From the IMG/VR virus record IMGVR_UViG_3300031520_000005, positions 1-47,341 of that record: a stretch of DNA of 47,341 nucleotides; one strand, given 5' to 3'. Positions within the stretch are counted from its first letter, which is position 1, and every line of letters begins with the position of its first letter. This document shows positions 3,752 to 45,919 of this stretch, piece after piece. The stretch comes from a virus. Lineage: Duplodnaviria; Caudoviricetes. The notes beneath the pieces were generated by a model, which saw only the letters and a program-made list of their open reading frames with translations, made no database searches and was not told the DNA's origin. The position numbers were made by a program, and so were the translations under genes.

Positions 3752-4450
3752 TCATGGGGTTGTTTCTGCGGAGGTATCGCCTGCCCCCGTGCCTGTGATG
3801 CGCGCCATGACGCCTTGTAGCAGGCTCGGCTTGCTGTCCTGCGCCTCTGTGAGGGCAGGCTCCGTCTTGGCGGCCTCGCTGATGGCCTTGTGCCCATCTG
3901 CAATGTCCTGCGCGCTCATGCGCAACTGCGTCATGCTCAAATTGAGCGGCGTGCTGGCAATCTCGGCTTTAAGTGCCTCGGCATGGGCGGTGAGACTGTT
4001 TTTGGCGGCGGCAAGCTGGCTGTTCCAAACCGGCGACAGGTCAGGGAAAGGCGCGGCGTTGGGCCAGAGCGCATGCACAAGTTGGATTGTGGCGGCGGCG
4101 TCCGAGACAGCCTTCGGGGGCAGAGCATTCACAGCGGACTCCGCCCCGGCTTCGGCGGCGCTGCGGGCCGCCTGCGCCACTTGCTGCGCGTCGGCAGCCT
4201 GGGCCTCCTGCGCGGTCGTGTCCGGACCGCCGTTGATGACGCCTGTGCCCGTGCCCGATTTATCCGTTTTCAGCGAGCGCGAAAGCATAGTCACGCCCAG
4301 CCCGAATACCGTGAGGGCTTGCGTGAGCCAGTGGATGCCGGGGAAGGCACTGATGATGGCGGGGGCATTGTTGGCAATCTGCGCCGCCAAAACGACGGCC
4401 CCCGCAAGCGCCGAATGTTTTTGCGAGGGCGTGAGGGTGAGTTTCTTCAA
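3752..4450 (-). CDS. Holin-like membrane protein with two N-terminal TM segments and a long Ala-rich tail
   Basis: Two hydrophobic stretches in the first 60 aa; lies in the lysis block. Confidence 0.55.
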   Translation of the reverse strand: MKKLTLTPSQKHSALAGAVVLAAQIANNAPAIISAFPGIHWLTQALTVFGLGVTMLSRSLKTDKSGTGTGVINGGPDTTAQEAQAADAQQVAQAARSAAEAGAESAVNALPPKAVSDAAATIQLVHALWPNAAPFPDLSPVWNSQLAAAKNSLTAHAEALKAEIASTPLNLSMTQLRMSAQDIADGHKAISEAAKTEPALTEAQDSKPSLLQGVMARITGTGAGDTSAETTP

Positions 4451-5807: not shown

Positions 5808-5885
5808 CTAGAGCTATCGTAGGCAAAGCAAAACTAGAGCTATCGTAGGCAAAGCAAAACTAGAGCTATCGTAGGCAAAGCAAAA
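5808..5885. repeat. Tandem repeat, 3 x 26 bp (CTAGAGCTATCGTAGGCAAAGCAAAA)
   Basis: Three exact intergenic copies with no spacers. Confidence 0.95.
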
Positions 5886-7341: not shown

Positions 7342-10300
7342 TCACACGGCCCATTTGGACTTGAGGTAGCTGACTACCTGCCCAAAGTTGGTGCTTGATA
7401 GCACACCCGAATACTGGATCATCTCCCCGATCTGCCCCTGGAACCCCTCCCCGCCGTTGTTGATGTTTTGGCCGACAGCGACGGTAGACGCTGAGATGGC
7501 GGCGGTGTTTGTGCCTGTCTTGGTAGGCGTCGTGCCGTTGCTGACGTTGCCCCGATAGAACGCGTAGTTGCCTGAGCCGTCGTAGGTCATCGCAAGCAAT
7601 ACCCAGGCTCCTGCCGCGATTGCTCCTGTCCCTTCCGTACCGAGTGATGTCCGTCCCTCAGCCAATGCCTCCATGCCGTTGCTGTCTATGCGCAGTTCCA
7701 TGCCGCCAATAGCCTGCGAACCGAATATAGCAAGGTTTGCCCCGCCTGCTGTGGGCACAACAGAGGGCTTCACAACGGCGAACACGGTAAAAGGCAGCAT
7801 CGCGGACGGGGCATTGGAGCTGTAGAATTGACTGCCGCTGAACGCGATGGCGGACAGGCCGTTTTGCGCCGTCGCCACATAGATGCCTGCTTGGTTGCTG
7901 GGCGCAGTCGCGTCGTAGCCGTTGCCGCTGAGGTCCAGCCACTTGAGGACGGGCACAGTGCCTGAGTAGCTCGTCAGCGCGTCGGCGGGGAGCCACAGCG
8001 TACAGCCCGCGATCGAGGTCGGCTGAAAGCCGCCATTGGCGAGCAGGCTGAAGGGCAATTTGGCGAGGCGATACGCACTGCCCGCCGTCTCTACCCCCAC
8101 GTACAGGCTGTCCGGCGTCCGCCCGGCACCGTCGAGCAGATACAGAACGTCACGGGTAGAAGCGGAGGCGACTGGCAGTTGAGTGACAAGCGTGATGCCC
8201 CCACTGCCGCTCCCCGCCGGCGGTACCTGCCAGCCCCCATCCTCCCGCAGAAACCGCGTGCTGCCTGCCGTCGCGCCGGGATCAGGCACAAACCCTGCCG
8301 CGTGGCCTACCCCCGAGGCCCCAAACGGCCCCGGCAGAGCAGGCAAATACCCGGACATGCGGTCAACCAGTGTCGTCAGCGGGCCTCCCACGCCTGCCAC
8401 GGTCAGCACATACGAGTCGCCCTGACCGTTTTGATAGCACAGCGCAAGCGTGTTCCATCCCGGATTCAGAGGCAAAGCATAAGTCTGCGGCACGCTGCCG
8501 CTTGCATCGCTGCCAACCTGCCCGCCGTTCAGCAGCACGCGGCAGGCATTGTCCACTGTGACCGTAATTTGGATGGTTTTCGCCGCCGCGACTTTCAGGC
8601 GCGTGTAGAAAATCACCTTCTGCTCGTAAGCAATCGGCGTTTGGGGCACATTGGCAGTGCTGAGGGCCAAGTCGCCGCCCGGCGTGGTGTACCAGCCGCT
8701 CCATGTCGGCGCGATGTCACCGGGGTTGAAAGCTGCGACCCCACCCGGCGAAGCGTCTATGCCGGCAAGTCCCCACAAAGGCGCGGCTGTGCCAGGGGAA
8801 GTGTCTACCCACCCGCGTACCCCCGCCGTGTTAGAGCCAAGCACCTGCCCATTGGCAGAGGGATTGCCCAGGCCCGGCTCCTTGGCCGTCCAGCTATCCT
8901 GACTGGCCTGCGAAGCATGCGGCGCGGCAGTGTAGGCGTCGTGCAGGGTCGGGTCGGCAGGGCTGGCCTGCAATGTCGTGCGAAACGCCGGGGTTGCCCC
9001 CGACGCTATTCCTGTCCCGCTGTTGCTCTGACTGCTGTACCCGCCGCCGCTTGCGCCCGTCGCCCCCGGCCCTTTTTTGGCAAGCCGGGCGTCAATCATC
9101 GCGTTGATGACCTGCGTCTCGTCTCTCGCCTCGCGCTCAATGTCCAGGGTCGTCAGCAGCGTGTCTGCCCCCGATCGCTCCACGCGGGCAATCGGCAGGG
9201 CCAAGTCCATCAGGGCCGGGCCGTCTGCGCCGAGCAGCAGCAGGCTTTCGCCTGGGTAATAGCGCGTCATGTCGCCGTCAAGGGTAAGCGGCGGGCGCTT
9301 GTACGGCCCCGACCCCCGAAAAAAGTTATCCGCGTAAGCCAGCGCGTCCGCGCGCGTCAGAATGGACTCTTCAGTGACGGGCGACACCTGCGGGCCGTAA
9401 TCCCCGTACCGGCCCCCATAAGTCGCCGCGCCTGCCGGGTAAGCCGTGAGCAGGTCAGCGTCATTGCAGGCCACCACAACTTTGAATGGGCCGTCCGCCT
9501 GGTACGGATCACTTGGCGCAGCGGCGTCCATCGCGGAGAGGGCATCAATCAGGATTTTGCCACTGCCGCGCAGGTTAGCAGACACGCGGGCGGATACTGA
9601 GTCCCCGTGGCCTGTGGCAATGGCCTCGGCGTACTGCCAGTTTGTGTTGTTGGGCTGCGCCAAAACCACGACTTTGCTCGCATTCGTTGACCGTCCGTCC
9701 CCGGCGTAAAACTCCAGCTCGGCCTGCATGCGCGGAAGGGGACCGCTGCCTGCGTTCGGCGAGCGGTAGCGATAGCGAAACCGGATTGTCTGCTGCGGCG
9801 ACACCGGAAAGCGGGCAGCGTGCGCCGGCTGCACCGGCACGTCGTGGTTGTTATCGTCCGCCGCCGTCACGTCTAGATACAGGCAGTAGGCCCCCTCATA
9901 GGCAGCGTCGGCATAAATCCAGTTGATGGCGTTGATGACAGCGCCGCCTTGCAGCTCGGCCTCCATGCCGTCCTGAGACACCTGCGAAGCGTCGTACAGT
10001 TCCGCCGCGTCCAGGTACAGCCCGCCGATGTTGCTGTTGCCCGTCCCCTGCGCGATGTGGTCAAGCTCAAAATGCGCCCGGCAGCGCGCGGCCCCGGCGG
10101 GCGCGATAGCCGTCAGGGAGAAATAATCCCAGGCAATAGAGGCGGGCGTCAGCGGAAACGTCAAGGCCACGCCGATGACAGCATTATTCGCATCCCGCCA
10201 TTCCAGCAGGCCGTGGCCGTCCGCGACCTGGTTGCCGAAGCCTTTGCTCGACCGCACGGCCAAAATGTAATTGCGCCCGGCGACAAAGGCAACGTCTCTG

Positions 10301-12560: not shown

Positions 12561-15500
12561 CTACCCTAGCCTTTGGCGCAGGACGGTTGCTAAATCCTCG
12601 CTGCCGCTGCCGCTTTGCGTGGCGTAGTGGTTTGTCTGGTTGACCTCAATCGGGCGGGCTGCGCCGCCTGTCATGCGCTCCATAGCGTCTCCAATTCGGT
12701 CTAGCCTGCGGTGCGTGCCGCTTATGTCGGCGGGGGCAGCGTGCTGCACATTGGTGATAAACGAGGGCGGCAGGGCAGGCGGCGGGGCCGTGCCTGCGAG
12801 CATGGCCTGACTCAGCACCACCTCGCGGGGCATGAGCATGGCAGGCACGCTGTCCTGATTGCCTTGTCCCGGCACGACGCCGCCATTCGCAAAGTGGAAG
12901 ATATGCCCCAGTCCGCCGAGCACCTTGCTTGCCACGCCTCCACCGGGGATAAATGACGCGGCCATGCCCGCAAGTCCCAGCAGTGCGCCGCCCTTGCCGC
13001 CGCCTGCGCCGGGCGCGCTCCCCATTACAATTCCGCTTCCCATCAGCCCCGGAGCCATGCCCGTGATAAAGACCGGCGTCGGCCCGCCCGCCTGCGCGGC
13101 CGCTCCGGAAGTCGCGGGGTGTTTCTTGTGCGTGAACATGTCCAGGATAGACAGCCCGGCCCCAAAGAGAGACAGCCCGGCCCCAATCGCTCCCCCTTGC
13201 CGCCCCATCATCGGAGCAACAGAGGCCGCTGTGCCAAGCCAATCCGTGCCGCCGCCGCCCCTACTGGGCGCGATACCCGGCGTGGCAGCAAGCCCCTTCC
13301 CGCCGCCGCCTTTAGTCAGAGTCTGACTTTTTGTCGCCGAGTAAATGGACAGGCCCGCAGATAGTAGAGAGCCAAAGCCCCCGCCTGCGCCGCTACCCCC
13401 AAAACCGCCAGAGGGCGATGCTGCCGGGTCATTGGGAGCTGTCGCGCCGGGGGCATTGGGCGGGGCCGCGCCGGGCTTGTTTCTGCCAAAGTCCAGCCCG
13501 CCCCCAAAACGCGAACCGAACAACTGTGACGAGGCCCACATAACGGCAAGATGCCGAATGATGCCTGCCACTTCGCCTTCCCACGCTTTCAGCCCATCTT
13601 TGTAAGAGTGGGCTTGTTCTAAAGCGCTGGAAAAGGCTGTTTTTGCGCCATCGGCAAGGCTGTTGAACGGTGAGGCGGCCCGGCGCTGGGCGTCAATCTC
13701 GTCAAGCTGGCCTTTAAGCGCCATATACTGCTCACTGACAATTCCTTTTGCGCTGTCAGCATACTTTTTGGTCAACGAAAGCTGACTTCCCAAAAAGCCC
13801 CTGTACTGACTCAGGCTAATGCCGTGCTGTTCTAACTCAAAACGTTGGCTACCTTGCAGAGCAGTGCGCTCGGCATCGGCCTGCTGACGGCTCAGGCTGG
13901 AGAGTTTCGCGGCAAGCCACGCATTTGCCGTCGCCTTATCCTGCGTCGTTCTCAGGAGTTCAACAGACGCGGCTCTCGCATCCTCTCGCAAACCCTTGTA
14001 ATAATCACGCGCTGAGGCAAGGCCGTCTTTCCAGCCGTCGTGATTGAGCGTCACGATTTCTTTACGGGCGGTGGCAATGGCGGCAGGCACGGCGCGCAAC
14101 TTCCCTAATTGCTCGGTGTAATCAGCAAACTCCTGAGTGTCCTGCCCGAACTTCTTTTGCTGGCCGGTCAGGTACTGGTCATAAGCGCCTCGCGTGCTGA
14201 GATGCGCGTCAAATTGGGACTTTGCTTTTTTGTCTGCCTCCGTGCGCGTCTTATCTGCCGCCGCCTCGTTATGGGTCTTGAGTTTGTCATTGACGGCATC
14301 TAGCGCAGCATCACGGGCATCGCTGAGCACCTTAATCTGCGCCTGCTGCCCGGTGCTGTAAAGCCCCCACGAGGCTTGCACGGCCTTGACGCGGGCGTTG
14401 TATTTGGCAAGCACGCCCGCCCGCTCTTGGCCGATCTGCACACCCTCCGGGTCTAAGTCGCCCCGCGCCTGCGCAAGTGCCGCCGTCGCCATGCCCTGCC
14501 GCTTCTGCTGGCCCGTGGTGACAGTCAGGGCGTGGCGGGCAATCGCGTTCATGCGCCGCACGTGGGCTTCTAGGGCCGTCTCTGCGTGCTTGTGAGCCGT
14601 TTTCTGTGCTTTGGCTTCTTTCGTGTCCGCATTGGCCTCTAAGCGGGCCATAGCCGCATGGTAGGTGGCGGCACTGATTAAGCCTTTGGCGCGGGCGGCA
14701 TTCAGGTTGTGCGTTTCCCGCTCCTGGGCCGTCATGCCTACCGTGTCGGCAAACTTGCCCGCCTTGCTCCCCGCTGCTGTTTTGGTAAACAGGGCCGGGT
14801 TAAATTCAACCGAATTATTAAACGGCACGCCGCCGCCATGAGTGTTAAAACGATAAACAGACGCATGGGCAGCATCATACATCGCCATTGTGCGCTTGAC
14901 ATTATTGCTTGATTGCGCTATCTGCCCACTGCCCATTGATACGCCGACGTGGTAGCCGCTTCTCTCGCCCCCGCCCTGCCGCGCCCCATAACGCGCCCCA
15001 TGCCAAACAACCAAGTCACCCGATTGCGCCTGTCCGGTCGGCACTTGCTTTGCCCCGTGAGACACGGCATAGTCACGCAAGCCTTTTGCGCCGGCAATGA
15101 CGGGCACGGCTTCGCCCATCTTCGTGAGCAACTTAGAAGCGAACAAGGCGCACGGCGCTTTGGCTTCGGGCGTATCTATGCCCGCAACAAGCCCCTTGAC
15201 AACGGCAGTCGCCGGGTGCGCTGCTGCCGTAATCCCTTTAATCACGCCTTGCTGCTGATGCAAAGAGCCAGTCAGTGCCGCCGCATCCGCATACTCCTTG
15301 CGGATGCGGGCCTGCAAATCTTTGTACCGCCCCGATTGCTGCACGGGGCCGGTGAGAAGCTCATAAGGCTTGTTCTCACGGGGCATATCCGCAAGTTTGG
15401 CTTTGTCTGCTTTGATGCCATCACGCAGGGACGAAAGCGCATTAACAATATTGACAATCGCGCCGTCGGTGCGCCTTTGCAGGTCGCCGTCCCTGCCAAG

Positions 15501-26384: not shown

Positions 26385-26454
26385 GTTTTTGTTCCTTTTC
26401 TGGGTGCTGTTAGTTTTTTCTGGGTACTGTTAGTCAGATTCTGACTTTTAGTCA

Positions 26455-29901: not shown

Positions 29902-29964
29902 GATAGGTGAGTCAGACTCTGAATGATAGGTGAGTCAGATTCTGACTTTAGGCAGGAGGAATAA

Positions 29965-31467
29965 TCACTGCGCGGCCCCGATGAGGCGGCTCATGCCATA
30001 AGCGGGGCGTTTGGCACTCTCGCCGCAGGTAGTCAGTTCGGTGAACGCATCGCTTCCGCTGTCTACAATGTCATCGTTTCTGCCGTTTGGGAAAGCGCGC
30101 AATTCGGCAATCACAACAGCGTTCCACGACGCGCGAAGCATCTTTACGTTCCCGGCATTCACCTGGCTAGCAAAAGCCCGCGCCCGCACTTCTTTACTGC
30201 CGCTTATCGGCTCGGCCTTCACAACGTACCCCGCAAGCATACGCACAAGTGCTGCCGCATCGCGCTTGCCCGCACTGCCGGGGTCTTGCGCAAGCCGAAT
30301 AGTCACGCCGCGCCCGTCAAGAGCGGCAGTCTGTTTTATCTCGGCATCGGCTTCGTCCGGCCCCCACTGCCCGCGCCGAAGGTCGGCAATGTAGTACCTG
30401 CCCGCGCCGTCCGTTTGAAGCTGAAAGCCGCTTGTAAAGTCGCCCTTGCCGACGCTTGCCGCAATATCCCAGCCGCGACACCCGCGCAGCCCAGCAGGCA
30501 AAGCGTCAACAATCTCAATTTGTGCGGGCTTGAAAAAAGAGCCTTCCGGCACGGTGGGATTCTGCTGGTACAATGCTTCCCAAGAGCGTTCGCCTTCGTT
30601 TTGCAGCAGCACCCCTTTGATACGCGCAAGGGCAGCAAGGTTGTACCGCTCAGGCCACAACGCCGCGCCGGGAGCGCGGCCTATCGGGTCATCATTGCCT
30701 GCGATGGCCGGGAGCTTGAGTACCGTCCATCGCCCCGGCTCAGAAGCAACGGCACGCGCACCGATGTCATCTTCCTGCCATAGCGTCATAATCAGCACAA
30801 TCGCCCCGCCTGGCTCTAGGCGGGTATAAAGGTCATCGGTGTACCAATCCCACACCGACTCGCGGTAGGTTTCGCTGTCTGCATCTTGACGGCGGCGTAT
30901 CGGGTCATCAACAACAATACGCTGAAAGCCTGTTCCTGTTGGTGGGGAACCGACGCCACGCGCCATATACAAGCCGCCCGCGTTAGTTTCCCACTCATCA
31001 GACGCGCTTTTGCCTACGGCGACTAACCCGCGCACTTTGGCAAGGTTACGGGTGCGCCGCCCGAACTTGCGGGCAAACCGCTCGTTATAGCCCGTGACAA
31101 GCACGTTGTCTGTTGGGGTGCGCTCTAAATGATACAACGGGTAACGATACGTGACGCTTTCGCTTTTTGCATGGCGCGGAGGCATGTGAATAGCAAGGCG
31201 GTCTATCTCGCCGCGCTCTACTGCGTCAAGATGCTCTGCTATCAGGCGAATGTGCGCCGGGTCCGCCGTCCATCCTGACGGGAGAGTAGCACGGAGGTAT
31301 GACAGGTAATCGGGCGAGGGCAGCTCAGTAATAAAAGGCGGCGGGCTTTGCGTTACGGCCCGCTGTTCGTACACGGCTTCAAGAGCCGCTAGGAGCTTCC
31401 GCTTGCCCGTCACTGGTAAGGAGCGCCAAGAGCTTGGCAATTCTGGTGTCGATATCAATCTGACCAT
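29965..31467 (-). CDS. terL: Terminase large subunit
   Basis: MPPRHAKS (Walker A), IVVDDP (Walker B), GWDIA and NDDIVD nuclease motifs. Confidence 0.95.
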   Translation of the reverse strand: MVRLISTPELPSSWRSLPVTGKRKLLAALEAVYEQRAVTQSPPPFITELPSPDYLSYLRATLPSGWTADPAHIRLIAEHLDAVERGEIDRLAIHMPPRHAKSESVTYRYPLYHLERTPTDNVLVTGYNERFARKFGRRTRNLAKVRGLVAVGKSASDEWETNAGGLYMARGVGSPPTGTGFQRIVVDDPIRRRQDADSETYRESVWDWYTDDLYTRLEPGGAIVLIMTLWQEDDIGARAVASEPGRWTVLKLPAIAGNDDPIGRAPGAALWPERYNLAALARIKGVLLQNEGERSWEALYQQNPTVPEGSFFKPAQIEIVDALPAGLRGCRGWDIAASVGKGDFTSGFQLQTDGAGRYYIADLRRGQWGPDEADAEIKQTAALDGRGVTIRLAQDPGSAGKRDAAALVRMLAGYVVKAEPISGSKEVRARAFASQVNAGNVKMLRASWNAVVIAELRAFPNGRNDDIVDSGSDAFTELTTCGESAKRPAYGMSRLIGAAQ

Positions 31468-31855
31468 GCCCCACGCCAAAACCACCCTCAACAGCAGGCG
31501 CGACAATCTCAAATGCCCATTTCGCGGGGCCACGCTTTGCCGAGCGAACCGACTTTTTGACAATCACCTTGCCGTCGGGAAGGATTGTGCTTTCCTCGCT
31601 TTCCCAAACCTCCGTCACGCCGTTCATAGCCGCAATTATCTTTTGGCGGAATACCTCTTCCACTTTGTCAAGGTCTGTTTTGGCAAACGCCCGCCTCGCG
31701 CGCGTGACTAGGTCAGAAAAGTCAGGTTTTTGGAGCCATTCATAAAATGTTTCCTTGCTGATGCCTGCCGCTTCATACGCCGCTTTTTGGGAGCCGGTGC
31801 GTGTAAGGACGCGGACAATCACCTCGTTGATGTAGGCGTCCCCATATTTAGTCAT
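31379..31855 (-). CDS. terS: Terminase small subunit (HTH)
   Basis: KAAYEAAGISKETFYEW..PDFS HTH; overlaps the TerL start. Confidence 0.8.
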   Translation of the reverse strand: MTKYGDAYINEVIVRVLTRTGSQKAAYEAAGISKETFYEWLQKPDFSDLVTRARRAFAKTDLDKVEEVFRQKIIAAMNGVTEVWESEESTILPDGKVIVKKSVRSAKRGPAKWAFEIVAPAVEGGFGVGHGQIDIDTRIAKLLALLTSDGQAEAPSGS

Positions 31856-31908
31856 AACCCTGCCTTATTTAGTCATAGCCCTGCCTTATTTAGTCATAGC
31901 CCTGCCTT
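31845..31908 (-). repeat. 3 x 21-bp tandem repeat spanning the TerS start
   Basis: Minus strand reads AAGGCAGGG(C/T)TATGACTAAAT three times. Confidence 0.9.
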
Positions 31909-32288
31909 TTTCGCTCGTCACGATAAATCAAGGCCGGGTTAGACTTCCCAACATTGTCATGGATCACCTCATGGCAGTCGGTACAGAGTGAGAGACCGTT
32001 AGAAACCTCAAGGCGAGTTTCGGGGCTTTCGGAAATGGTCAGCAGATGATGGGCGATAATCTTGCCGTCTCGTGTGCCGCACATCTGGCAAGCGTGGTTG
32101 TCACGGTTTAAGACAGCCAGTTTCCACCGCTTGTAATCACTCCCTTGCGAATTAAGTCGCTGCTGCTTGTGCCAGCAGAGAGGCGAGCAAAAACGATGGT
32201 TGGCGTTCCTCTGGGCGAAGAGATTGGAGCATTTGACATAACCACAGGTGGCGAACATGATGCTGAAGAAAACCTTCTCTGCCGGCAA
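31890..32288 (-). CDS. HNH endonuclease (terminase-associated)
   Basis: VLNRDNHACQMCG...AHH...NGLSLCTDCH..IH. Confidence 0.88.
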   Translation of the reverse strand: MPAEKVFFSIMFATCGYVKCSNLFAQRNANHRFCSPLCWHKQQRLNSQGSDYKRWKLAVLNRDNHACQMCGTRDGKIIAHHLLTISESPETRLEVSNGLSLCTDCHEVIHDNVGKSNPALIYRDERKRQGYD

Positions 32289-32347
32289 CTGGCCTGCTTA
32301 AAGTCATCGATTGTGTTCAGATGTTTTGGCATTAAATCCAATCCCCA

Positions 32348-32605
32348 CTAAGCCCTCAGCCTTCGCCACCCGCACCGCTCCCACCCAACCCGCTCCAAGA
32401 GAGGTGTCATCATAGTTCCGGTTTTTATCAGCTTGCCGGGCGCATCGGCAATCACCCGCGAGTTAATCCGCGTTTCGGCCTGGCTAAGCTGCTGCTCTAG
32501 AGCTTCCAGGCTCAGCCCCAAGCGCAGGGCAATGAGTTCCGGCGACTGGTTCAGGCGATGCAGGGCTTCCCAAAATCTTAAATCCCACTCGCGCGGGGTG
32601 AGCAT
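32348..32605 (-). CDS. Sigma region-4-like HTH protein (candidate late activator)
   Basis: MLTPREW...ELIALRLGLS...QAETRI; sits just before the packaging genes. Confidence 0.55.
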   Translation of the reverse strand: MLTPREWDLRFWEALHRLNQSPELIALRLGLSLEALEQQLSQAETRINSRVIADAPGKLIKTGTMMTPLLERVGWERCGWRRLRA

Positions 32606-32615
32606 GCGCAGTATC

Positions 32616-32852
32616 CTAAAGCGGCTTGCCGTTGGCGCGGGACTGCGCGGGAAAGGCAAAGCGTCCGGCGTCCGGGATTTGCTTGCCCAGTGCGTTCGGC
32701 TCGTGGATTGACCAGTCTTTCTCGCCGTGCGGGGTATAGGGCACGCCTTTGTATTGCAGCTTTGTCTGCTCGCAAGCCACTGCCAAAGCCTGGTCATACT
32801 GCCGGACGGTTTGCCGCTGAGCGTTTCGGCGGGCACTACGCGGGCTGGGCAT
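32616..32852 (-). CDS. Hypothetical protein
   Basis: AGAGGA RBS before MPSPRSARRNAQ. Confidence 0.5.
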   Translation of the reverse strand: MPSPRSARRNAQRQTVRQYDQALAVACEQTKLQYKGVPYTPHGEKDWSIHEPNALGKQIPDAGRFAFPAQSRANGKPL

Positions 32853-32963
32853 GGGGACAATCCTCTGGGGGCAGACAGACAAAAACCCAGCGCATATGCT
32901 TTTTCAAGCGGCTGGGTTACGGAGTTTAACGTCTCACGCATTGGACGCGGGGTTGTTCTATAT

Positions 32964-33236
32964 TTATCTTACGAGAGTTTGGGCGCCCGTGTCAACGCTT
33001 TTTGTCTTGGTTTCCTTCGTTTCGGAGGATTTCAAGCCGAGCCGCCTTAGTTGTTGCTCTGACAGCCCGGTTTCCTCTGGCAAGTTGTGCAGCCGGGGCA
33101 GAGGAACGGCGGGGTGGTTTTGCGCCCAATACGCTTGATACTCAGCCCAGACCTTGCGCGGCTTTCTGTATTTGCAGAACTGCGCCCCCCGGCTTTCATA
33201 GCCGCCCGTCATGCTGATTGTCGGCGCGTCATTCAT
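32964..33236 (-). CDS. Hypothetical protein
   Basis: ATGA overlap with the upstream gene. Confidence 0.55.
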   Translation of the reverse strand: MNDAPTISMTGGYESRGAQFCKYRKPRKVWAEYQAYWAQNHPAVPLPRLHNLPEETGLSEQQLRRLGLKSSETKETKTKSVDTGAQTLVR

Positions 33237-33652
33237 AGGGGGTTGCGTTTTCGCTTGGCCCTCGAACGCGCAACGCCTCTTGCACTTGCCTTAGCCTGCC
33301 TGCCCCCGCCGACCGCCTTGTCGGACGCGAGCCTCGAACGCGCAACGCCTCTTGCACTTGCCTTAGCTCTGCATTCAGCGCTACAAATGATTTGACGGCC
33401 ATGGGTTGCTACGAACGAGTTGCCGCAGATTGTGCAGCCGACAACGCTAGGTTCTTCAGGTAAGAGGGGCCAAACAATGGGGAAAAATACTTCCCCCCAC
33501 ACGTCTACCCACCCTCCTTCGGGTTTGCTAGAGCGGCGACAGATTACCTGTTGAATAATTTGAGGGTATTGCTCAAAGCTTCCATAGCAAAGGATTGGGG
33601 CGTCGCTGTTTGTCGGTGCAGTTGCTATAAGTTGCCACGGGGTTTGCGTCAT
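33233..33652 (-). CDS. Hypothetical protein (WQLIATAP N-terminus, zinc finger) carrying an in-frame 72-bp repeat-spacer insertion
   Basis: CTIC...CSAEC followed by AKASARGVARSR-LASDKAVGGGRQ-AKASARGVARSR. Confidence 0.7.
   Translation of the reverse strand: MTQTPWQLIATAPTNSDAPILCYGSFEQYPQIIQQVICRRSSKPEGGWVDVWGEVFFPIVWPLLPEEPSVVGCTICGNSFVATHGRQIICSAECRAKASARGVARSRLASDKAVGGGRQAKASARGVARSRAKRKRNPL
33260..33367 (-). CRISPR. CRISPR-like repeat-spacer-repeat unit (36/36/36 bp) with a non-canonical repeat; the spacer matches this phage at 44309-44344
   Basis: Repeats 33260-33295 and 33332-33367 are identical (CCTCGAACGCGCAACGCCTCTTGCACTTGCCTTAGC). Spacer CTGCCTGCCCCCGCCGACCGCCTTGTCGGACGCGAG is identical to 44309-44344. 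Confidence 0.75.
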
Positions 33653-33711
33653 TGGTTTAGTCCTGTCCCAGCATCAGCGAGGGCGTGCAGAGCGGCGCGG
33701 TAAAACATCCC

Positions 33712-33748
33712 GTTGCACCCGCCTCTAGGGGCGGGTGAGGATTGAAAC
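33712..33748 (+). CRISPR. Solitary type I-C-like CRISPR repeat (37 bp)
   Basis: GTTGCACCCGCCTCTAGGGGCGGGTGAGGATTGAAAC: GTTGCA start, CACCCGCC/GGCGGGTG stem, 11-nt AGGATTGAAAC 3' end; intergenic and abuts the dnaB stop; no second copy seen. Confidence 0.85.
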
Positions 33749-35146
33749 TTAAAATCCATCCTCTTGCCAGTCGTCAAAACGAGCAAAGCCGGGGGCAAAG
33801 CCGAGCTTGACATGTCCGGTCGGGCCGTTGCGGTGCTTGGCGAAGATAAGTTCCGTTTCTTCCAGAGCCGCGACGGGGGGCGCGTCGCCCAGCGCTCCCT
33901 TGCGCCGGTAATAGCTTTCGCGGTACAAAAAGCACACCAGGTCTGCGTCCTGCTCGATGTCGCCCGACTCGCGCAAATCAGACAGCAAGGGCCGCTTGTT
34001 TTCCCGGCTTTCCACACTGCGCGAAAGCTGAGACAGCGCCAGCACGGGCACGCCGAAGTCGCGGGCAAGCTGCTTGAGACCACGGCTGATACTGCCGACT
34101 GCCTGCGTCCGGTTCTCGGTTTTCTCATCGGCCTGCATGAGCTGCAGGTAGTCCACGACAATGAGCGACAGCGGCGCAGTGCGTTCCAAGCGGCGGCACT
34201 CGCGGGCGATGAAGGCGGGCGTGGCGCGGGTGTCATCGCAGATAAAGAGCGGCGCGTCGTAAAACTCATTGGCGGCAATATTGGTCTGCTCAAACTGGGC
34301 GGGCGTGAGCCGCCCCGCATTGAAGGCTTGGCTCGGCACCTCGCCCCGGCTGCAAATAATCCGCTTGGTGAGCTGATCCATGGACATTTCAAGGCTGAAT
34401 ACGGCGACTGTTTCGCGGCGGTCAATGGCAGCGCGCAGGCCAATCTCTAGGCCCAAAGCGGTCTTGCCCATGCTCGGACGGGCGGCCAGTATCACGAGGT
34501 CTGAGGGCTGCAGTCCCCCGGTCATGGCATCAATGTCCCGGAAGCCGGTGGGCAGCCCCATCATGCGCCCGCCCTGCTCGGCGTTCGCTTCTGCCTGCTC
34601 CATCAGGCGCAGAACGGCGGAAGCCAGCTTTTCGCAGGCGGCGGCACCGCGACGGGTTTCAATGGCGGCAAGGCGGCTTTGGGCGGCAGACAACACCGCG
34701 CCGCTCTCAGCGTCATGGGCAAGCGCGGCGGACTGCGTGGCCTGGGCCGCGTCAAGGGCCTGCCGCAGAACACTTTTCTCCCGCACGATCCGGGCGTAAT
34801 GCTCAACGTTAAGGGCCGTGGGCACGGTGTCAAACAGGGCTGTGAGAAACACGATCCCACCGACGCGCTCTAACAGGCCCCGCCGCGATAGCTCTGCCTG
34901 CATGGTCAAGAGGTCAACGGGCCGCGCCTGCCGGGTGAGGTCAAGAATAGCGGAAAACACGGCGAAATGCTCGGACCAGTAGAAGTCGCTCGCCGTGACA
35001 AGGGCCGTCGCTGCGTCTATGGCGCTGGCTAAGATCAGCATGGAGCCAAGTGTCGCTTGCTCAGCTTCAATGTTCTGGGGCGGCAGGTACGGCTCGGGGG
35101 TAGGCAAATTGGTTGCGGGCAAAGGGGCATATTTGTTTTTGGTCAC
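33749..35146 (-). CDS. dnaB: Replicative DNA helicase
   Basis: PPQNIEAEQ, ILAARPSMGKT, FSLEMS, VVDYLQL, LSQLSR, DLRESGDIEQDAD, KHRNGP. Confidence 0.97.
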   Translation of the reverse strand: MTKNKYAPLPATNLPTPEPYLPPQNIEAEQATLGSMLILASAIDAATALVTASDFYWSEHFAVFSAILDLTRQARPVDLLTMQAELSRRGLLERVGGIVFLTALFDTVPTALNVEHYARIVREKSVLRQALDAAQATQSAALAHDAESGAVLSAAQSRLAAIETRRGAAACEKLASAVLRLMEQAEANAEQGGRMMGLPTGFRDIDAMTGGLQPSDLVILAARPSMGKTALGLEIGLRAAIDRRETVAVFSLEMSMDQLTKRIICSRGEVPSQAFNAGRLTPAQFEQTNIAANEFYDAPLFICDDTRATPAFIARECRRLERTAPLSLIVVDYLQLMQADEKTENRTQAVGSISRGLKQLARDFGVPVLALSQLSRSVESRENKRPLLSDLRESGDIEQDADLVCFLYRESYYRRKGALGDAPPVAALEETELIFAKHRNGPTGHVKLGFAPGFARFDDWQEDGF

Positions 35147-36150
35147 TGGGCGGCTCCTTCGGCAAGGGCGGGGCTTGGTTTGGCAAGGGCGAGGCTTGGT
35201 TTGGCAAGGGCGGCGTCGGATTTAGGAAAGCGGGAGCGGAACGGCTGGGTCACAATCGGCACGCCCCCTGTTGCTGGGCTTCGGGCATCGGGTTCCGGCT
35301 CATCGCGCCATGCCCCGGCGTTCAGGTAGGTTGCCGGGTGCGGGATAAACGCCCCGCCATCTTTTGTCCAGGCACGGCTGCACTTTTGCCAGTCCAGGGC
35401 CGCCAGCATTGCCGCCAGCATGTCGGCATCGGGCTTTAGTTTCACCCACGCTTTCTCAGCGTCCGCAGGGTGCTTTTTCTTGGGATAGGCGCCGTAAAAC
35501 GCATCAAAGCGAAGCAGCAGAGAACTTCGCACCTTCACAGGTTCTTGTTCCGGGGTTGCGTGTGAAACAACTGTACACTCCGGCTCCGCAGGGGCCGTTC
35601 CCCCCCCGGGGGGGTTAGGGGGGTCTTCTCTTACAGAAGGAGTAGGAGAAGGAGTAGGAGAAGGAGTAGGAGAAGGAGTAGGAGACACGCGCGTGTAATG
35701 CTGTTCCTTGCCGTTCTCTGCCGATGCTTGCTGTTCCTTGCCGTTCTCTGCTGTTTGGGAGGCAGAATACTCTAAGAATTGCTGGTTAGGCGGGTAAAGT
35801 GAGCCTTTATCGTTTGTGCGCTTGCTGATATTGATATAGGATTGCCGTTTGAACCATGCGTCGGGCGGGAAGGCAATATACTGTTTGTCGCCGACTTCAT
35901 AGCGATCCCAGAGTCCCAGCCGTGCGATCTCGCTTAACACAGCGTCAATTTCTTGCTTTGGCGTGTCAAAGCCGGGGCAAACCAGCATCTTAAACTCGCG
36001 CGGGCTGCCTGGGAGCCGCCCCCAGTCGTCAGCTTGGGGAATTGCCATCATGTAAAGGGCGACGGCGAGGTATCCCTGCTCAGACTCGGAAAGCTCGGCA
36101 ATGCGCTCATCATGGGAAATATCACTAGACATGTCACGTTTTCGGCTCAT
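35143..36150 (-). CDS. Phage replication initiator / replisome organiser
   Basis: N-terminal ADDWGRL motif; central repeats (AENGKEQ x2, PTPS x4); C-terminal FDAFY.AYPKK...FIPHPATYLN; directly upstream of dnaB. Confidence 0.8.
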   Translation of the reverse strand: MSRKRDMSSDISHDERIAELSESEQGYLAVALYMMAIPQADDWGRLPGSPREFKMLVCPGFDTPKQEIDAVLSEIARLGLWDRYEVGDKQYIAFPPDAWFKRQSYINISKRTNDKGSLYPPNQQFLEYSASQTAENGKEQQASAENGKEQHYTRVSPTPSPTPSPTPSPTPSVREDPPNPPGGGTAPAEPECTVVSHATPEQEPVKVRSSLLLRFDAFYGAYPKKKHPADAEKAWVKLKPDADMLAAMLAALDWQKCSRAWTKDGGAFIPHPATYLNAGAWRDEPEPDARSPATGGVPIVTQPFRSRFPKSDAALAKPSLALAKPSPALAEGAAQ

Positions 36151-36222
36151 GTCGTTTCCTCCGGTTTTCTGTCAGTCTCGTTTTTCTTCAGCGGGCACTG
36201 CGCCTGGTGCTCCAGCTTGCCC

Positions 36223-37008
36223 TCACTCACAAGGGCCGGGATGGTAAAGCACTTGCAGCCTCTCGCCCACGCCGCGCGGCTGCCGGGTTTCAGCATCCAG
36301 CCAGGACGCACGCGGCGTACTTTGGGGGCTGTCATGGGGAGGTTTGTCATGGGGAGGTTTGTCATGGGGAGGTTTGCATGGGGCGAGCCTCCGGTACACA
36401 ATCACCCACACCCAAGGATTTTCAGCCCAGCCAAACCCGCGCTTTGCGTTGATCCTGTCCCACAGTTTGCCAAAGCAATACAAGGGCCAGTCCTCGCCGC
36501 CGTTCGTGTCAACGCCTTCGGCGAGTGCGTCGTGCTCAGTGATGTCCTGCACCCGTTCCACGCGCACGCTGACAATTTCCAGGGTCAGGCGTGATGCCCA
36601 GCGCGGCATGTGGATGGAGGGTTTCCATCGCGGCTGATAAATAGCACCATCCAGCGACGGCGACGGGCCTTCCCAGCCTGCGTCTGCCTCGCGCGTCGTG
36701 CCGTCCGGGTATTCAATCTCATAAAATCGCTCCAACCGCGCTGACGGTCGCCATCTCTCGCGCACCCAAAGCCTGTCGCCCGCCTGCCCATAGGGACACG
36801 GAATGCGCTTATAGCGCTCTGTGTCGTAGCCCTCAGGTTCGTCCGGTGCATGACGATAAGGATAGCCCTCAGAAATCAAGTCCGGCTGGGGCTTTATCAC
36901 GCGCCGGGTTTGGGTTTTGATGTCAGCTAGGGTTGCCCGTACCATGTCACCCTGCATCAGCAGGGGCCGCTCTTTGGCGTCTGTCATCTGCGCTTTAGTA
37001 TCTGTCAT
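36223..37008 (-). CDS. Conserved phage protein (ASCH/PUA-like, KTQTRR family)
   Basis: KTQTRRVIK...CPYG..GDRLWVRE...WKPSIHMPRWASRLTLEI...NPWVWVI. Confidence 0.8.
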   Translation of the reverse strand: MTDTKAQMTDAKERPLLMQGDMVRATLADIKTQTRRVIKPQPDLISEGYPYRHAPDEPEGYDTERYKRIPCPYGQAGDRLWVRERWRPSARLERFYEIEYPDGTTREADAGWEGPSPSLDGAIYQPRWKPSIHMPRWASRLTLEIVSVRVERVQDITEHDALAEGVDTNGGEDWPLYCFGKLWDRINAKRGFGWAENPWVWVIVYRRLAPCKPPHDKPPHDKPPHDSPQSTPRASWLDAETRQPRGVGERLQVLYHPGPCE

Positions 37009-37282
37009 AGTCACGCCTCAATCCCAAAGCCTGCCGGAATATGTCTTTAATCAAAGCCACCTCTGCCCTGTCCCGCCGCGTCTGTGCCATGCTGTCACCA
37101 CGCTCGCCCCTGAGCCTTGCGCCAAGGGGGACTAACTCGCCCGTGCCATAAGACGCCCCTACCCTGCCGTCTGGATACCAGTAGAGGGTTTGGTCACTGC
37201 GGGCGGGGTTGACAAGCTGCCAGTCCTTCGGGCCATGCTGAATGAGTGTCCAATGAGCATAGGGGTGAGTGGCCGCGAGCAC
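36995..37282 (-). CDS. Hypothetical protein
   Basis: GGAGG RBS before a GTG in track ORF 36995..37390. Confidence 0.45.
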   Translation of the reverse strand: MLAATHPYAHWTLIQHGPKDWQLVNPARSDQTLYWYPDGRVGASYGTGELVPLGARLRGERGDSMAQTRRDRAEVALIKDIFRQALGLRRDYDRY

Positions 37283-37834: not shown

Positions 37835-38267
37835 TTCGGCCCCTCCGTTGTCCAGTGTATGTTGTGGGCGTAGGTCCCGCCCACGTCGCCGCTTTCGGAA
37901 ACGGGGGCTTCGCACGGGCATTAGCATCAACCTCCACTCCTGCTGCCTCTGCCTCGCCTGCCATTGCCTGCCGGACATACACGCCGATCGTGCGGCACAT
38001 GTCGGCAAACGGCAGGGCCACAGCCGCCTCGCCGGGTATCTCCAGCACAAGCAGGGCGTTAGCCAGCCTCGGATCGCGCGTGTTGATAATTTCTGCCGTG
38101 TTGATAATTTCTGCCGTGTTGATAATTTCTGCCGTGTTGATAATTTCTGCCGTGTTGATAATTTCTGCCGTGTTGATAATTTCTGCCGTGTTGATAATTT
38201 CTGCCGTGCCGGTATGGAGCATCCGTTTATCCGTGTCGCTCACATTTTGTTTGTTTACATGGCTCAT
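37773..38267 (-). CDS. Hypothetical protein with seven TAEIIN repeats
   Basis: ATG 38267; internal 18-bp tandem array. Confidence 0.55.
   Translation of the reverse strand: MSHVNKQNVSDTDKRMLHTGTAEIINTAEIINTAEIINTAEIINTAEIINTAEIINTAEIINTRDPRLANALLVLEIPGEAAVALPFADMCRTIGVYVRQAMAGEAEAAGVEVDANARAKPPFPKAATWAGPTPTTYTGQRRGRNESRNFLHPIGRPYVQWAPL
38080..38208. repeat. Tandem repeat, 7 x 18 bp (GTGTTGATAATTTCTGCC)
   Basis: Exact copies, in frame. Confidence 0.95.
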
Positions 38268-39436: not shown

Positions 39437-40066
39437 TTAATTCTTGCCCTTCTGCGTTTTGTCGGCAAGCAACTCAAGCAGTTTTTCACTCGCCGCCGCA
39501 CTCGCCGCATCCCTCGCCGCCGCACTCGCCGCATCCCACGCCGCATCCCTCGCCGCATCCCACGCCGCAGCACTCGCCGCCGCCCACGCCGCAGCAGAAA
39601 CGGCTTCGCCGTTAATCGCCTGCAAATGCAGGCTGGCAACGCCCTCAATAGCCTTGCGTTGCTGCTCATCAATGTCCCCCTGAACAAACCGAATCACACC
39701 CCCGGCAGGGTCAACCAACAGCCAATGCAAAAACTGATGGTAAACAATGGTGAGGTCTGTGCCCACAGGCAAAGCCTCTATGAATCTTGCCGGAAACATT
39801 TTTGCACTGGCTTCCGGCAGCGCCTCAAACAAGCTATCAATGAGATAAGCCAGCCATAAAGGAATGCCAATTTGCCGAGATAGCGCCTCATGGCTGTTAG
39901 TACCGGAATGCGCAAGACAGCCGATGGCGCACCCTTTCCAGCCAGTCGCCCCGACCGCCTTGCCATAAGTCCCTTTTATAAAATCGTCATCCTCCCGGTG
40001 CTTTTTTGCCCGTGCGAGATAAGTTTTCTTGAGCTGAGCGTCGCCGTAAAATGTCAGTGTTTCCAT
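39437..40066 (-). CDS. Conserved phage hypothetical protein with AASAAAW/DAA repeats
   Basis: KGCAIGC motif; 12-bp-unit low-complexity repeats. Confidence 0.7.
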   Translation of the reverse strand: METLTFYGDAQLKKTYLARAKKHREDDDFIKGTYGKAVGATGWKGCAIGCLAHSGTNSHEALSRQIGIPLWLAYLIDSLFEALPEASAKMFPARFIEALPVGTDLTIVYHQFLHWLLVDPAGGVIRFVQGDIDEQQRKAIEGVASLHLQAINGEAVSAAAWAAASAAAWDAARDAAWDAASAAARDAASAAASEKLLELLADKTQKGKN

Positions 40067-40526: not shown

Positions 40527-40897
40527 AATATACCACAATTTACGATATATCGCACAACGATAACAAAATACTCAAAAAAATAATTCGGCTTTTTTCAGGC
40601 TGCAATTGGCTACTGGTTAACACATTTTGTCAGGGTATCTATGTCAACGCCCAATGCGGTTGCGATGCGCAGAGCTTTGCTCAGAGTCGGCTCAAAGCCG
40701 CGCCCCTCTAAATCGTACCAGTACGAGGGGGAAATGGCCGCTTTGCGCGCCGCTTCCTGAACGGAAAGCCCTGCCTCAAGCCGCAGATATTTGAGGTGTG
40801 TTCCAAAGTTCATCTTGCCATGATAGCACATTTCACGGTATTTCGCAAATAGCACCCTTTTCGTTCGTTACGATATGTCGCAACTTTTGGGTACATT
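40527..40897. promoter_or_regulatory. Immunity-region promoters and three operator-like sites
   Basis: TTACGATATATCGCA (40540), TCACGGTATTTCGCA (40833) and TTACGATATGTCGCA (40868). The first two overlap the -35 boxes of minus-strand promoters GTGCGA-N17-TATATT and TTGCGA-N17-TATCAT; the third overlaps a plus-strand TTACGA-N18-TACATT. Confidence 0.7.
40610..40813 (-). CDS. Cro-like XRE-family HTH regulator (leaderless)
   Basis: MNFGTHLKYLRLEAGLSVQEAARKAAIS...EPTLSKALRIATALGV; divergent from the repressor. Confidence 0.9.
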   Translation of the reverse strand: MNFGTHLKYLRLEAGLSVQEAARKAAISPSYWYDLEGRGFEPTLSKALRIATALGVDIDTLTKCVNQ

Positions 40898-40927
40898 CGG
40901 TGTCAACAGTAATTGGGGACGAAATAT

Positions 40928-43812: not shown

Positions 43813-43876
43813 GCGCGGCAGGGGTAGACGCCTGGCACGCCCGTCAAACCTATTGTCCAATTGCCGAAAAACTACA

Positions 43877-44467
43877 ATGACAGATATTGCCCCGCCCCCA
43901 ACAGATATTGCTCCATTGCAACAATCTCGCAATGCTGAGCAGCCCCCCGCTGATTTACTGACGCTCAAGGAAATCAGCGAGCGGCTGGGCGTGGCCTACG
44001 GACGCCTGCGCGGGTTTGCCGAAACGCCCGGCGTGGCGGAATACGTCGGAGCCGTCAAGGTGGCCGGGGTCAAAGGCGTACGTTACCCTGCCGAGGCTGA
44101 GGGGCAGTTTGCCCGGCTTGTCCAGGCCCAAGACGCAGGCATTGTGACGCCCAAAACAGCCCGTGCGTTCCTCGCCAGTGCCAGTGTTGCGCCATTACAG
44201 CAATTGAGCAATGACGGAGACGGCAGAGTTATTGTCCCATTGCAACAATCTCGCGAAGGGACGGCGGTGGCGGCTATGGAGCGATTGTCGGATATGTTGT
44301 CCTCGCGCCTGCCTGCCCCCGCCGACCGCCTTGTCGGACGCGAGGAAGCCGCGCAGCTTCTGGCCTGCAAGCCCGGCTCAGTGGGGCGGTATATACGTCC
44401 GGTGAGGCGTGGGGCATGGCGGCATTCGGACATCCAAAGGTACATTGCGGCATTGTTGAAACGATGA
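43877..44467 (+). CDS. Protein with two MerR/excisionase-like HTH domains (candidate plasmid maintenance regulator)
   Basis: LLTLKEISERLGVAYGRL...RYP and RLVGREEAAQLLACKPGSV; contains the protospacer 44309-44344. Confidence 0.75.
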   Translation: MTDIAPPPTDIAPLQQSRNAEQPPADLLTLKEISERLGVAYGRLRGFAETPGVAEYVGAVKVAGVKGVRYPAEAEGQFARLVQAQDAGIVTPKTARAFLASASVAPLQQLSNDGDGRVIVPLQQSREGTAVAAMERLSDMLSSRLPAPADRLVGREEAAQLLACKPGSVGRYIRPVRRGAWRHSDIQRYIAALLKR

Positions 44468-44497
44468 AATGAGACGCAACGCGGGATTGCAGCATTG

Positions 44498-44526
44498 TTG
44501 ACTTTGCGCAATGGATGTTGTATACT
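44498..44526 (+). promoter_or_regulatory. Strong sigma70-type promoter of the second replicon operon
   Basis: TTGACT-N17-TATACT. Confidence 0.8.
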
Positions 44527-44697
44527 AAATTATATCTCCGCACGAGTTGCTCACGAGGCCGGGACTGAGAGCAACAATGTCCTGGCAAGCACTCACAAGC
44601 CAAATAAACCACACACGAAAACCCCGCCGTCGCTGGACACGACGAACGGGGCCTCTGCTCAAATTGAGCAACAATGCGCATAGGAGGCGCACTGCCG

Positions 44698-45099
44698 ATG
44701 CCCGAATCTTACCACGCCACGTCCGAAACGTCAACCCCCACCGTCGCCGCGCTTGCGGCAGAAATGCGCTGCACACGCGGATATGACCGGCGCAGGGCTA
44801 TTCATGCGCGGCTGGAAATCCTGTCTGCCCATCTTCGCTCGCTCCTGCCGTTCGCCACAAAAACCGCCTATGCCTATAGCCCGCGCGAAAGCGCGCGTAG
44901 TGGCGGGGGCATCCACTTGGTTGTCGTAGACCCAATCAAAATCGGGCGCATTGCCCGCAGCCCCGGCGAAACTCTGTGCAAAGGGGCGTTCTGGGGGCTG
45001 GTAGCCTGGGATAAACCCATGGACAGGGCAGACTGCCTAAAATGTCTTGCCGTTGCCGAGCGCTTTGCAAAACACGCGGAAAGCGAGGCGGCAGAATGA
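44698..45099 (+). CDS. Hypothetical protein
   Basis: AGGAGG RBS; His/Cys residues (IH...LC...CLKC). Confidence 0.65.
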   Translation: MPESYHATSETSTPTVAALAAEMRCTRGYDRRRAIHARLEILSAHLRSLLPFATKTAYAYSPRESARSGGGIHLVVVDPIKIGRIARSPGETLCKGAFWGLVAWDKPMDRADCLKCLAVAERFAKHAESEAAE

Positions 45100-45341
45100 G
45101 CAAAATATCCACTGTACCCACAACTGCCGAATGGGTTGTGCCTGATAACGTGCATATTACCGAGGCCAACCTGCCGGGCCTGATCGCGGCTGTTGTAGAG
45201 ACGCTTGGCAAGCGTATTTATGTTTATGAGGATGGCTCGAACGGCAGGCTGCTTGTGACCGATAAACGCAAGCGCACACCCAATATCGCATGCGAACTGC
45301 TGCTAATCGCGTGGCCGAAAAAGACAGGGGGCAAAAAATGA
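45096..45341 (+). CDS. Hypothetical protein
   Basis: ATGA overlaps at both ends. Confidence 0.6.
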   Translation: MSKISTVPTTAEWVVPDNVHITEANLPGLIAAVVETLGKRIYVYEDGSNGRLLVTDKRKRTPNIACELLLIAWPKKTGGKK

Positions 45342-45919
45342 GCCGTCCTGTTTCGCGCGAAAAACCTTTGCATGAAAAGGCCGATGCGCCGTACATCCAA
45401 GTACCACTGAGCCTCATGTCACGCAAGGACATAAGCCAGACCGCCAAGCTGCTGTACGGGCTTATTGTGTGCCTCTCGCACCAGGCCGGGTACTGCTATG
45501 CCTCCGATGACTACATAGCCGAACGGATTGGCGTCAGCAAGCGGCAGACGCAGCGAGCCATTACCGAACTTGAAACTCTGCGGATCGTGCTCATCACGGG
45601 GGCAACAAGCCGTCGCCATATCCGGCCAGCTAACGACAAAAACGGCGTGAGTTACCCCAAGACTGACGACGTGCTAACGACAAAAACGTCACAAGATAGC
45701 CCCCCGCTTACGACAAAAACGTCGTCAACTAACGACAAAAACGGCGCTATAATAGAAAAGGGAATAAAAAAGAAAATAGAAAAGATATTGCCTGCGGCTG
45801 TTCAGGAGGCAGAGCGGCCGCAGGCAGTCCGCGCCGCCCAAAGCATACTGGAGACGGCAGACACGGCGTTCGCGCGGGCACGGCGGCAGAAGGCTGCGCA
45901 GAAAGGCGGGGCCGAATGA
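45338..45919 (+). CDS. Winged-helix (HTH_36-like) replication initiator
   Basis: YIQVP..LM.RKDISQTAKLLYG...GYCYASDDYIAERIGVSKRQTQRAITELE; contains iterons. Confidence 0.8.
   Translation: MSRPVSREKPLHEKADAPYIQVPLSLMSRKDISQTAKLLYGLIVCLSHQAGYCYASDDYIAERIGVSKRQTQRAITELETLRIVLITGATSRRHIRPANDKNGVSYPKTDDVLTTKTSQDSPPLTTKTSSTNDKNGAIIEKGIKKKIEKILPAAVQEAERPQAVRAAQSILETADTAFARARRQKAAQKGGAE
45630..45789 (+). other. Iteron-type replication origin
   Basis: CTWACGACAAAAACG at 45630, 45674, 45707 and 45729 (spacings 44, 33, 22 bp), followed by an A-rich tract at 45748-45789. Confidence 0.8.

Follow-up and report, generated by a model that had tools for sequence, protein, structure and literature searches.

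A solitary type I-C CRISPR repeat against the dnaB stop of a phage, read as a possible scar of recombination with a host array

In a phage of a rock microbial community, represented by the virus record IMGVR_UViG_3300031520_000005, positions 33712-33748 of the plus strand are occupied by a single CRISPR repeat identical to the repeats of bacterial type I-C arrays. The whole record, 47,341 nt, is the window analysed here. On balance we favor the reading that the repeat is the scar of a recombination with a host array, in which phage DNA was replaced and a PAM removed, and that it probably yields no working RNA today. This reading starts from four observations: the identity with array repeats, the subtype, junctions that are exact to the border, and two protospacers on the phage that are flanked by TTC.

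Results

A single repeat meets the end of dnaB

The 37-mer at 33712-33748 is the sole match in the window at up to three mismatches, and none of 100 shuffles gave a match. With up to 13 mismatches allowed, a search for full-length copies across 8 kb to the left and to the right on the window's own metagenome contig turned up neither another repeat nor a decayed one. As a single copy in a viral genome, with neither an array nor cas genes, it is a solitary repeat unit (SRU) and not a viral mini-array, which has two repeats around a spacer; no second full-length copy lies within 8 kb. Solitary repeat units are a known kind, to which this locus adds an exact type I-C one. The repeat folds into a hairpin of nine pairs at -18 kcal/mol (z of -3.5), and none of 200 shuffles folds equally well. 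Rfam gave no match, and a search of viral contigs returned no exact copy of the repeat. Read antisense, the hairpin did not score as a terminator.

The dnaB helicase gene (33749-35146, minus strand), recognized by PHROGs and Pfam hits and by alignment to homologues, ends directly against the repeat. Its stop codon, TAA, occupies 33749-33751 and touches the last base of the repeat at 33748. The dnaB C-terminus is complete, reaching the end of all eight aligned homologues; because this end and the end of the repeat are both intact, the junction lies exactly between the two. The repeat is antisense to the dnaB operon. Scans of ORFs in the window (65 against PHROGs, 30 against Pfam and 18 against NCBIfam) found no cas family and no integrase. 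An earlier note, made from the sequence alone, had described one intact 37-bp repeat at the dnaB stop, antisense to the operon, in a window free of cas genes, and the present searches agree with it on all of these points.

Subtype, matching arrays and probable host

Six metagenome loci contain the exact repeat. One of these, L116, is the window's own contig; the other five show array or leader context, with zero-mismatch copies in the arrays of L113, L114, L115 and L117 and, in L112, after a leader. Zero mismatches in five of the six loci fits a recent copy. The L112 stretch encodes cas3, cas5d, cas8c and cas7 (Pfam PF09704, PF09709 and PF05107, and Cas3 domains), followed by the leader and the identical repeat, and this placement identifies the repeat as type I-C. 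We regard that assignment, made from gene content beside the identical copy, as settled. No cas1, cas2 or cas4 was found in the 8-kb stretch of L112.

A gapped pattern was used to gather the wider repeat family and found 99 genome loci; the nearest are four Armatimonadota loci at three mismatches. The best named matches to the phage dnaB are from Capsulimonadaceae, and array L115 has next to it an RsgA gene with 89% identity to that of a genome in the class of Armatimonas. Taken together, the nearest repeat loci, the dnaB matches and the RsgA identity indicate that the host probably belongs to the Armatimonadota, class Armatimonadia. Searching the 37-mer against known repeats, as the earlier note had advised, therefore returned exact matches to real array repeats together with a subtype and a host group, confirming both its type I-C assignment and its expectation that the repeat would help to identify the host. 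No spacer matching the phage occurs among the 1105 distinct spacers of the repeat family or in the identical-repeat arrays, and the genome closest to the array carriers (G038) yielded neither the repeat nor cas1 nor a related prophage with the queries used. As a separate observation, a whole SnoaL-like gene with its ribosome-binding site lies between two repeats at the old end of the L114 array (8343-8828), where it resembles a 486-nt spacer; it is missing at the same array position in L115 and L117.

The upstream flank resembles the tail of a phage gene

The sequence GGTAAAACATCCC is present upstream of the repeat and had been taken, in the earlier note, for a possible leader or -10 remnant. 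Neither leader comparison nor a promoter scan bears this out. When the flank is compared with three leaders from arrays of the identical repeat, its last 12 nt give seven matches (background fraction 0.07) and lengths of 20-40 nt stand at background (0.47-0.57), while a consensus scan, of a kind that can miss promoters, found no sigma-70-like promoter on the plus strand in 32800-33711. The flank looks closer to the 3' end of a phage gene than to a leader. The 59-nt flank with its overlap (33649-33711, minus strand) has 20 open codons and an ATGA overlap with the next gene, and it contains, as read from the sequence, the ribosome-binding site of that gene; by codon usage it is likely the 3' remnant of a phage gene. 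The 60 nt upstream of the repeat have a minus-frame coding score (LLR) of +1.83, compared with an in-frame mean of 2.2 (n=138) and an out-of-frame mean of -4.4. None of 100 stop-free off-frame pieces reached this value. Among 616 intergenic pieces 5.7% reached it, as did 10.9% of the 320 that are stop-free and, of 5000 shuffles, 2.7%; against these stricter controls the coding signal is moderate.

Four neighboring gene pairs of the operon overlap by 4 nt, and the gap from dnaB to the next gene is 96 nt. A 36-codon frame (33649-33759, minus strand) begins within the 3' end of dnaB, stays open across the whole repeat and overlaps the start codon of the next gene; it could keep translational coupling. 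Atlas returned no hit for this frame, and neither a homologue search nor Atlas gave a usable protein match to the 20-codon tail. The simplest reading of these frames would be a small coupled gene whose middle has been replaced by the repeat with the frame kept.

An ectopic spacer near the repeat

A Cys-rich ORF of 139 aa (33233-33652, minus strand), with weak HNH-like PHROG hits, carries an in-frame insertion of 24 residues. The 72 nt inserted consist of a 36-nt spacer at 33296-33331 (minus strand; family D16), identical to 44309-44344, plus one copy of a 36-nt target-site duplication whose two copies lie at 33260-33295 and 33332-33367 (family D19). At the source protospacer (44309-44347, minus strand) a TTC lies directly 5' (44347-44345), against a background TTC frequency of 0.011 per position. 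The one non-self homologue found of the Cys-rich ORF, P0121 (115 aa, 79%), is without exactly those 24 residues, so the insertion is the derived state. Its length fits the spacers of the repeat family, 1067 of 1105 of which are 33-38 nt long, and the duplication of 36 nt (34-36 with boundary ambiguity) compares with a repeat of 37 nt. The duplicated target does not resemble a leader-repeat sequence, with 12 and 14 of 36 matches (background fractions 0.67 and 0.28). Both junctions of the insert are covered by contigs of a rock metagenome run, X1, at depths of 6.9 and 11.1 with 28-30 letters on the short side; the phage population is possibly mixed for the 72-nt insert.

The nearby ectopic spacer to which the earlier note had pointed is thus upheld by the insert, its duplication, the TTC at its source and the shorter homologue. 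That 33260-33367 represents off-target integration, by Cas1-Cas2, of the phage's own DNA, as an event separate from capture of the repeat, appears well supported by these features; the spacer probably derives from the same conflict. The 'neo-CRISPR' off-target units described by Nivala 2018 (per 10.1101/148544) are similar in having a spacer-length insert within a repeat-length duplication of ordinary DNA, and in the present case a PAM stands at the source as well. Unlike the units described there, the phage case is natural, belongs to type I-C, took up the phage's own DNA, sits in frame in a gene, and has a duplication of 36 nt against a 37-nt repeat in a target unlike the repeat.

CRISPR targeting of the phage

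The repeat-linked spacer and the ectopic spacer, both with TTC, are read here as traces of a type I-C system that has acted on this phage. The former comes from an X1 contig (depth 14.3) in which the 3' end of a repeat is followed by two letters and then by the window from 40869 onward. The spacer starts at 40867, differs from the phage at position 2 and has TTC directly 5' of its target at 40864-40866; TTC and protospacer together (40864-40898, plus strand) are placed between two divergent HTH-type regulator genes. On the short side of this contig just 21 letters fit, at 85% likeness, and the array may therefore have a variant form of the repeat or come from a different organism. For type I-C the canonical PAM is TTC, a mismatch in the seed still allows priming, and I-C priming favors uptake from the 5' side (PMC5602111). 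The source of the ectopic spacer (44309-44344) lies on that 5' side of the 40867 site, on its own strand, a position that fits priming without proving it. Similar, operator-like motifs occur between the divergent HTH genes at 40540-40557, 40833-40850 and 40868-40884. The repeat-linked spacer overlies one of them, where a mismatched Cascade could affect the lysis-lysogeny switch.

The assembled junctions

Of the runs listed as containing the region, X1 ranks best and may be the source run of the phage; no RNA run was among them, which has no bearing on expression. A further run, X2, contains short identical phage pieces that cover neither repeat junction. An assembly chimera, formed through two host spacers flanking a repeat, would find some encouragement in the depth of the repeat, a hub at about 270 in the sample against 12-13 for its flanks, in the 29-30 repeat letters carried by the junction contigs, below the bar of 31 letters set for a bridge, and in the relation of X1 to the phage, which perhaps makes X1 not independent. 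However, in X1 each junction is carried by a long piece that has no branch and a depth like that of the phage (33338-33740 at 12.1 and 33719-35664 at 13.1). The contigs do not break where such spacers would depart from the phage path, as they do at the spacer at 40869, and no other path for the phage is seen. We hold a chimera to be extremely unlikely. In the same run, a 2292-nt contig (record 7, depth 11.2) has a two-mismatch repeat at 411-448, possibly another lone copy in a host.

Discussion

Origin of the repeat

By the scar reading, a I-C system would have targeted the phage and taken several spacers from it. A piece of its array, spacer-repeat-spacer, with spacers that match the phage on either side of a gap, would have served as a repair template, and the repeat would have replaced the phage DNA between the two protospacers, giving junctions exact to the border. 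The end of the repeat would now stand in the former right-hand PAM, marking the dnaB end as self, and the product would survive since dnaB, the start of the next gene and the frame between them stay intact. The last ~35 nt of dnaB would then be the right-hand protospacer, with the repeat in PAM position. Deletion of phage DNA and loss of a PAM we infer, as we do the origin as a scar, since no DNA of a repeat-free relative was found in the searches; a plain insertion of the repeat without deletion is possible.

Recombination between spacer and target, joining phages and arrays, has been published (Varble 2019 and Watson 2018, cited in PMC8616872). In those cases, as here, homology between spacer and phage joins the array to phage DNA at repeat borders. 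The products reported in that account are transducing particles with cas loci, whereas here a viable phage would have kept one repeat. Among titles and abstract openings in the literature, a scope that takes in few of the subscription papers, none presents a lone repeat as a PAM-erasing scar or as an adaptation decoy.

The flanking spacers predicted by the scar reading were found neither among the 1105 distinct spacers of the family nor in the identical-repeat arrays, and X1 shows no contig branch where they would join. No TTC lies 33-38 nt left of the repeat; an ATC triplet 36 nt to its left was rejected as PAM evidence, not being significant. No relative of dnaB or P0121 was confirmed among 36 and 23 pattern hits, respectively, in viral contigs, and GenBank phages gave no match to 33233-33800. 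In 71 genomes of an Armatimonadota class, all of the matches listed to 31300-36200 are to dnaB or to repeats (45 more matches lie beyond those listed), and the Cys-rich ORF was matched in none of 401 genomes of the phylum. Looking up PAMs at other lone repeats returned, for L006, only the locus itself, its twin and homologues of 33-59% among the 80 loci kept, and, for L012, only the locus itself and no close relative.

In favor of the scar reading, repeats of this family interrupt genes at other loci. In L006 (3817-4071, minus strand) and L010 a small phage gene contains the repeat in frame; homologues of that gene are too distant to reveal what the repeat replaced. In L056, by our reading of the flank, a lone repeat cuts off a cas3-like HD coding sequence precisely at the repeat border, which suggests a deletion joined there.

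Possible functions of the repeat

The earlier note had proposed that the repeat might work as an RNA anti-CRISPR (Racr), which would mean a plus-strand transcript cut by Cas5d that ties up Cas5d and Cas7. The repeat is perfect and its hairpin is of the right subtype; the phage is under I-C pressure and persists, despite a matching spacer, at a depth like that of the repeat-bearing contigs; and RacrIC1 is an example of a I-C Racr that works (PMC10651486). RacrIF1 is driven by a promoter of its own, and RacrIC1 is transcribed together with acrIC5, which precedes it (PMC10651486); neither layout is seen at the phage repeat, which lies antisense to the operon and, by a consensus scan that can miss promoters, has neither a sigma-70-like promoter of its own on the plus strand in 32800-33711 nor sense co-transcription. 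Twelve viral loci hold the repeat family, nine of them with a single mid-contig copy, eight of these distinct; by a reading of their ORF lists, seven of the eight repeats are sense to their neighbors, unlike the phage repeat, and one (L009) is antisense, like it. The handle, presumably the last 11 nt of the repeat after cutting by Cas5d, is predicted to pair with the bases that follow. No neighboring gene hit an anti-CRISPR family in PHROGs, Pfam or NCBIfam, libraries that are not specific to anti-CRISPRs, and the position-2 mismatch of the matching spacer could by itself explain survival. A working Racr thus appears unlikely from the layout of the locus, and the proposal in the earlier note is not supported by it. 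Compared with viral SRUs and Racrs, including RacrIC1 (Camara-Wilpert 2023, PMC10651486; Faure 2019, per PMC8616872), the locus is alike in its single host-type repeat between genes, intact hairpin and matching subtype; it differs, from what those accounts describe, in having no promoter or sense co-transcription found, an antisense orientation, no acr neighbor detected and a flank like that of a cut gene, so that any such activity would be a candidate one. In L003, L038, L041, L064 and L012, lone repeats of the family stand in sense orientation just before a ribosome-binding site or start codon, where they are possible Cas5d-cut mRNA leaders.

A related idea, which we judge very unlikely, is a self-made guide, in which the repeat and the sequence of the dnaB end would be made into a crRNA against sister phages that retain the PAM. 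Under the scar model the geometry would fit, the phage's own copy lacking a PAM, and viral mini-arrays do target related viruses (PMC11656645). On the other hand, searches for a promoter or terminator on the plus strand and for a second repeat came up empty, handle and seed are predicted to pair, and a sister target was likewise not found. For a Cracr, nine or more PAM-proximal matches are required (10.1101/2024.10.29.618823); none of that type was found for the downstream or upstream candidate guide in L112-L115 and L117, where the cas promoter tested is not that of the phage's own host. An 11-nt match of the upstream candidate to window position 4423, with TTT, was rejected, since by our estimate about one is expected by chance. 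The locus resembles viral crlRNAs and Cracrs (10.1101/2024.10.29.618823) and mini-arrays in having a host-type repeat on a phage with a possible guide sequence adjacent, and differs from them, as there described, in having neither a second or pseudo-repeat nor a match of at least nine PAM-proximal letters to the L112 cas region.

Two further explanations look beyond RNA. The repeat might be an adaptation decoy, as the earlier note also suggested, drawing Cas1-Cas2 onto the phage and soaking up or misdirecting new spacers. The only spacer-like scar in 47 kb does lie 344 nt from the only repeat, a closeness expected by chance about 2% of the time, for one case judged post hoc. The strict form of the idea is not supported, since the ectopic spacer is not at the repeat, which is itself unexpanded, and this argues against a true decoy. 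The flank, moreover, is unlike the three known leaders, the ectopic spacer is oriented opposite to the repeat, off-target integration happens without any planted repeat (Nivala 2018, per 10.1101/148544), and both events could cluster where the region tolerates insertions or where Cas3 cut. We therefore consider a decoy quite improbable. Closeness is the sole argument for a looser version, in which Cas1-Cas2 is drawn to the captured repeat and, finding no leader, fires into nearby phage DNA; this we view with the same strong doubt, although if true it would mean that priming adds its spacers to the phage and not to the array of the host. The repeat could alternatively be an attP-like crossover site, left over from a phage that once lay in an array between two repeats, departed with one and may re-enter. 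Such a role would suit a phage with no integrase among its scanned ORFs, long inserts do occur in the lineage, as in the SnoaL gene of L114, and integration through recombination between an SRU and an array has been proposed (PMC8616872). But the contig runs intact through the repeat and breaks elsewhere, integration at the repeat would cut dnaB off from the genes downstream of it, the contig is possibly incomplete, with an integrase perhaps outside view, and an array flank joined to phage DNA is not resolvable from the contigs. We give the crossover idea little credence.

Under the scar reading, the locus looks like a fresh capture, with its exact repeat, its junctions at the precise borders and its cut gene. 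As such it would represent a point from which Racrs evolve, and so bears on how phages first gain the lone repeats that may turn into Racrs; not every solitary repeat should be counted as a Racr. One phage carries three footprints of one I-C system, namely a spacer directed at it, a misplaced spacer in one of its genes and a captured repeat, and the host group concerned is little studied.

Other features of the phage genome

The PHROGs scan of ORFs places head, tail, terminase, replication and repressor-type genes in the window. Family scans with PHROGs and Pfam, together with a look at 36223-37014, identified no phage recombinase in the window, a point against the scar reading; the ORF at 36223-37014 was rejected as a candidate, being unrecognizable as one, and yields a weak ASCH lead. 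The two contig ends, 2-520 and 46063-47340, both lie in minus-strand open frames with no family hit, and the left one resembles a secreted protein in its N-terminal part. From these frames, the two may be halves of one secreted protein, the contig being a circle opened within a single gene, with a gap. A plus-strand module at 43853-45919, which contains the source of the ectopic spacer, has an excisionase-like HTH gene, small ORFs and a second replication initiator, and is possibly a satellite or a plasmid-like part. In the structural gene region a palindromic motif occurs three times, at 13312-13335, 26430-26453 and 29931-29954, and its copies are candidate late operators. Perfect tandem arrays occur at 38061-38226, 39462-39605 and 5808-5885, with units of 18, 12 and 26 nt, respectively.
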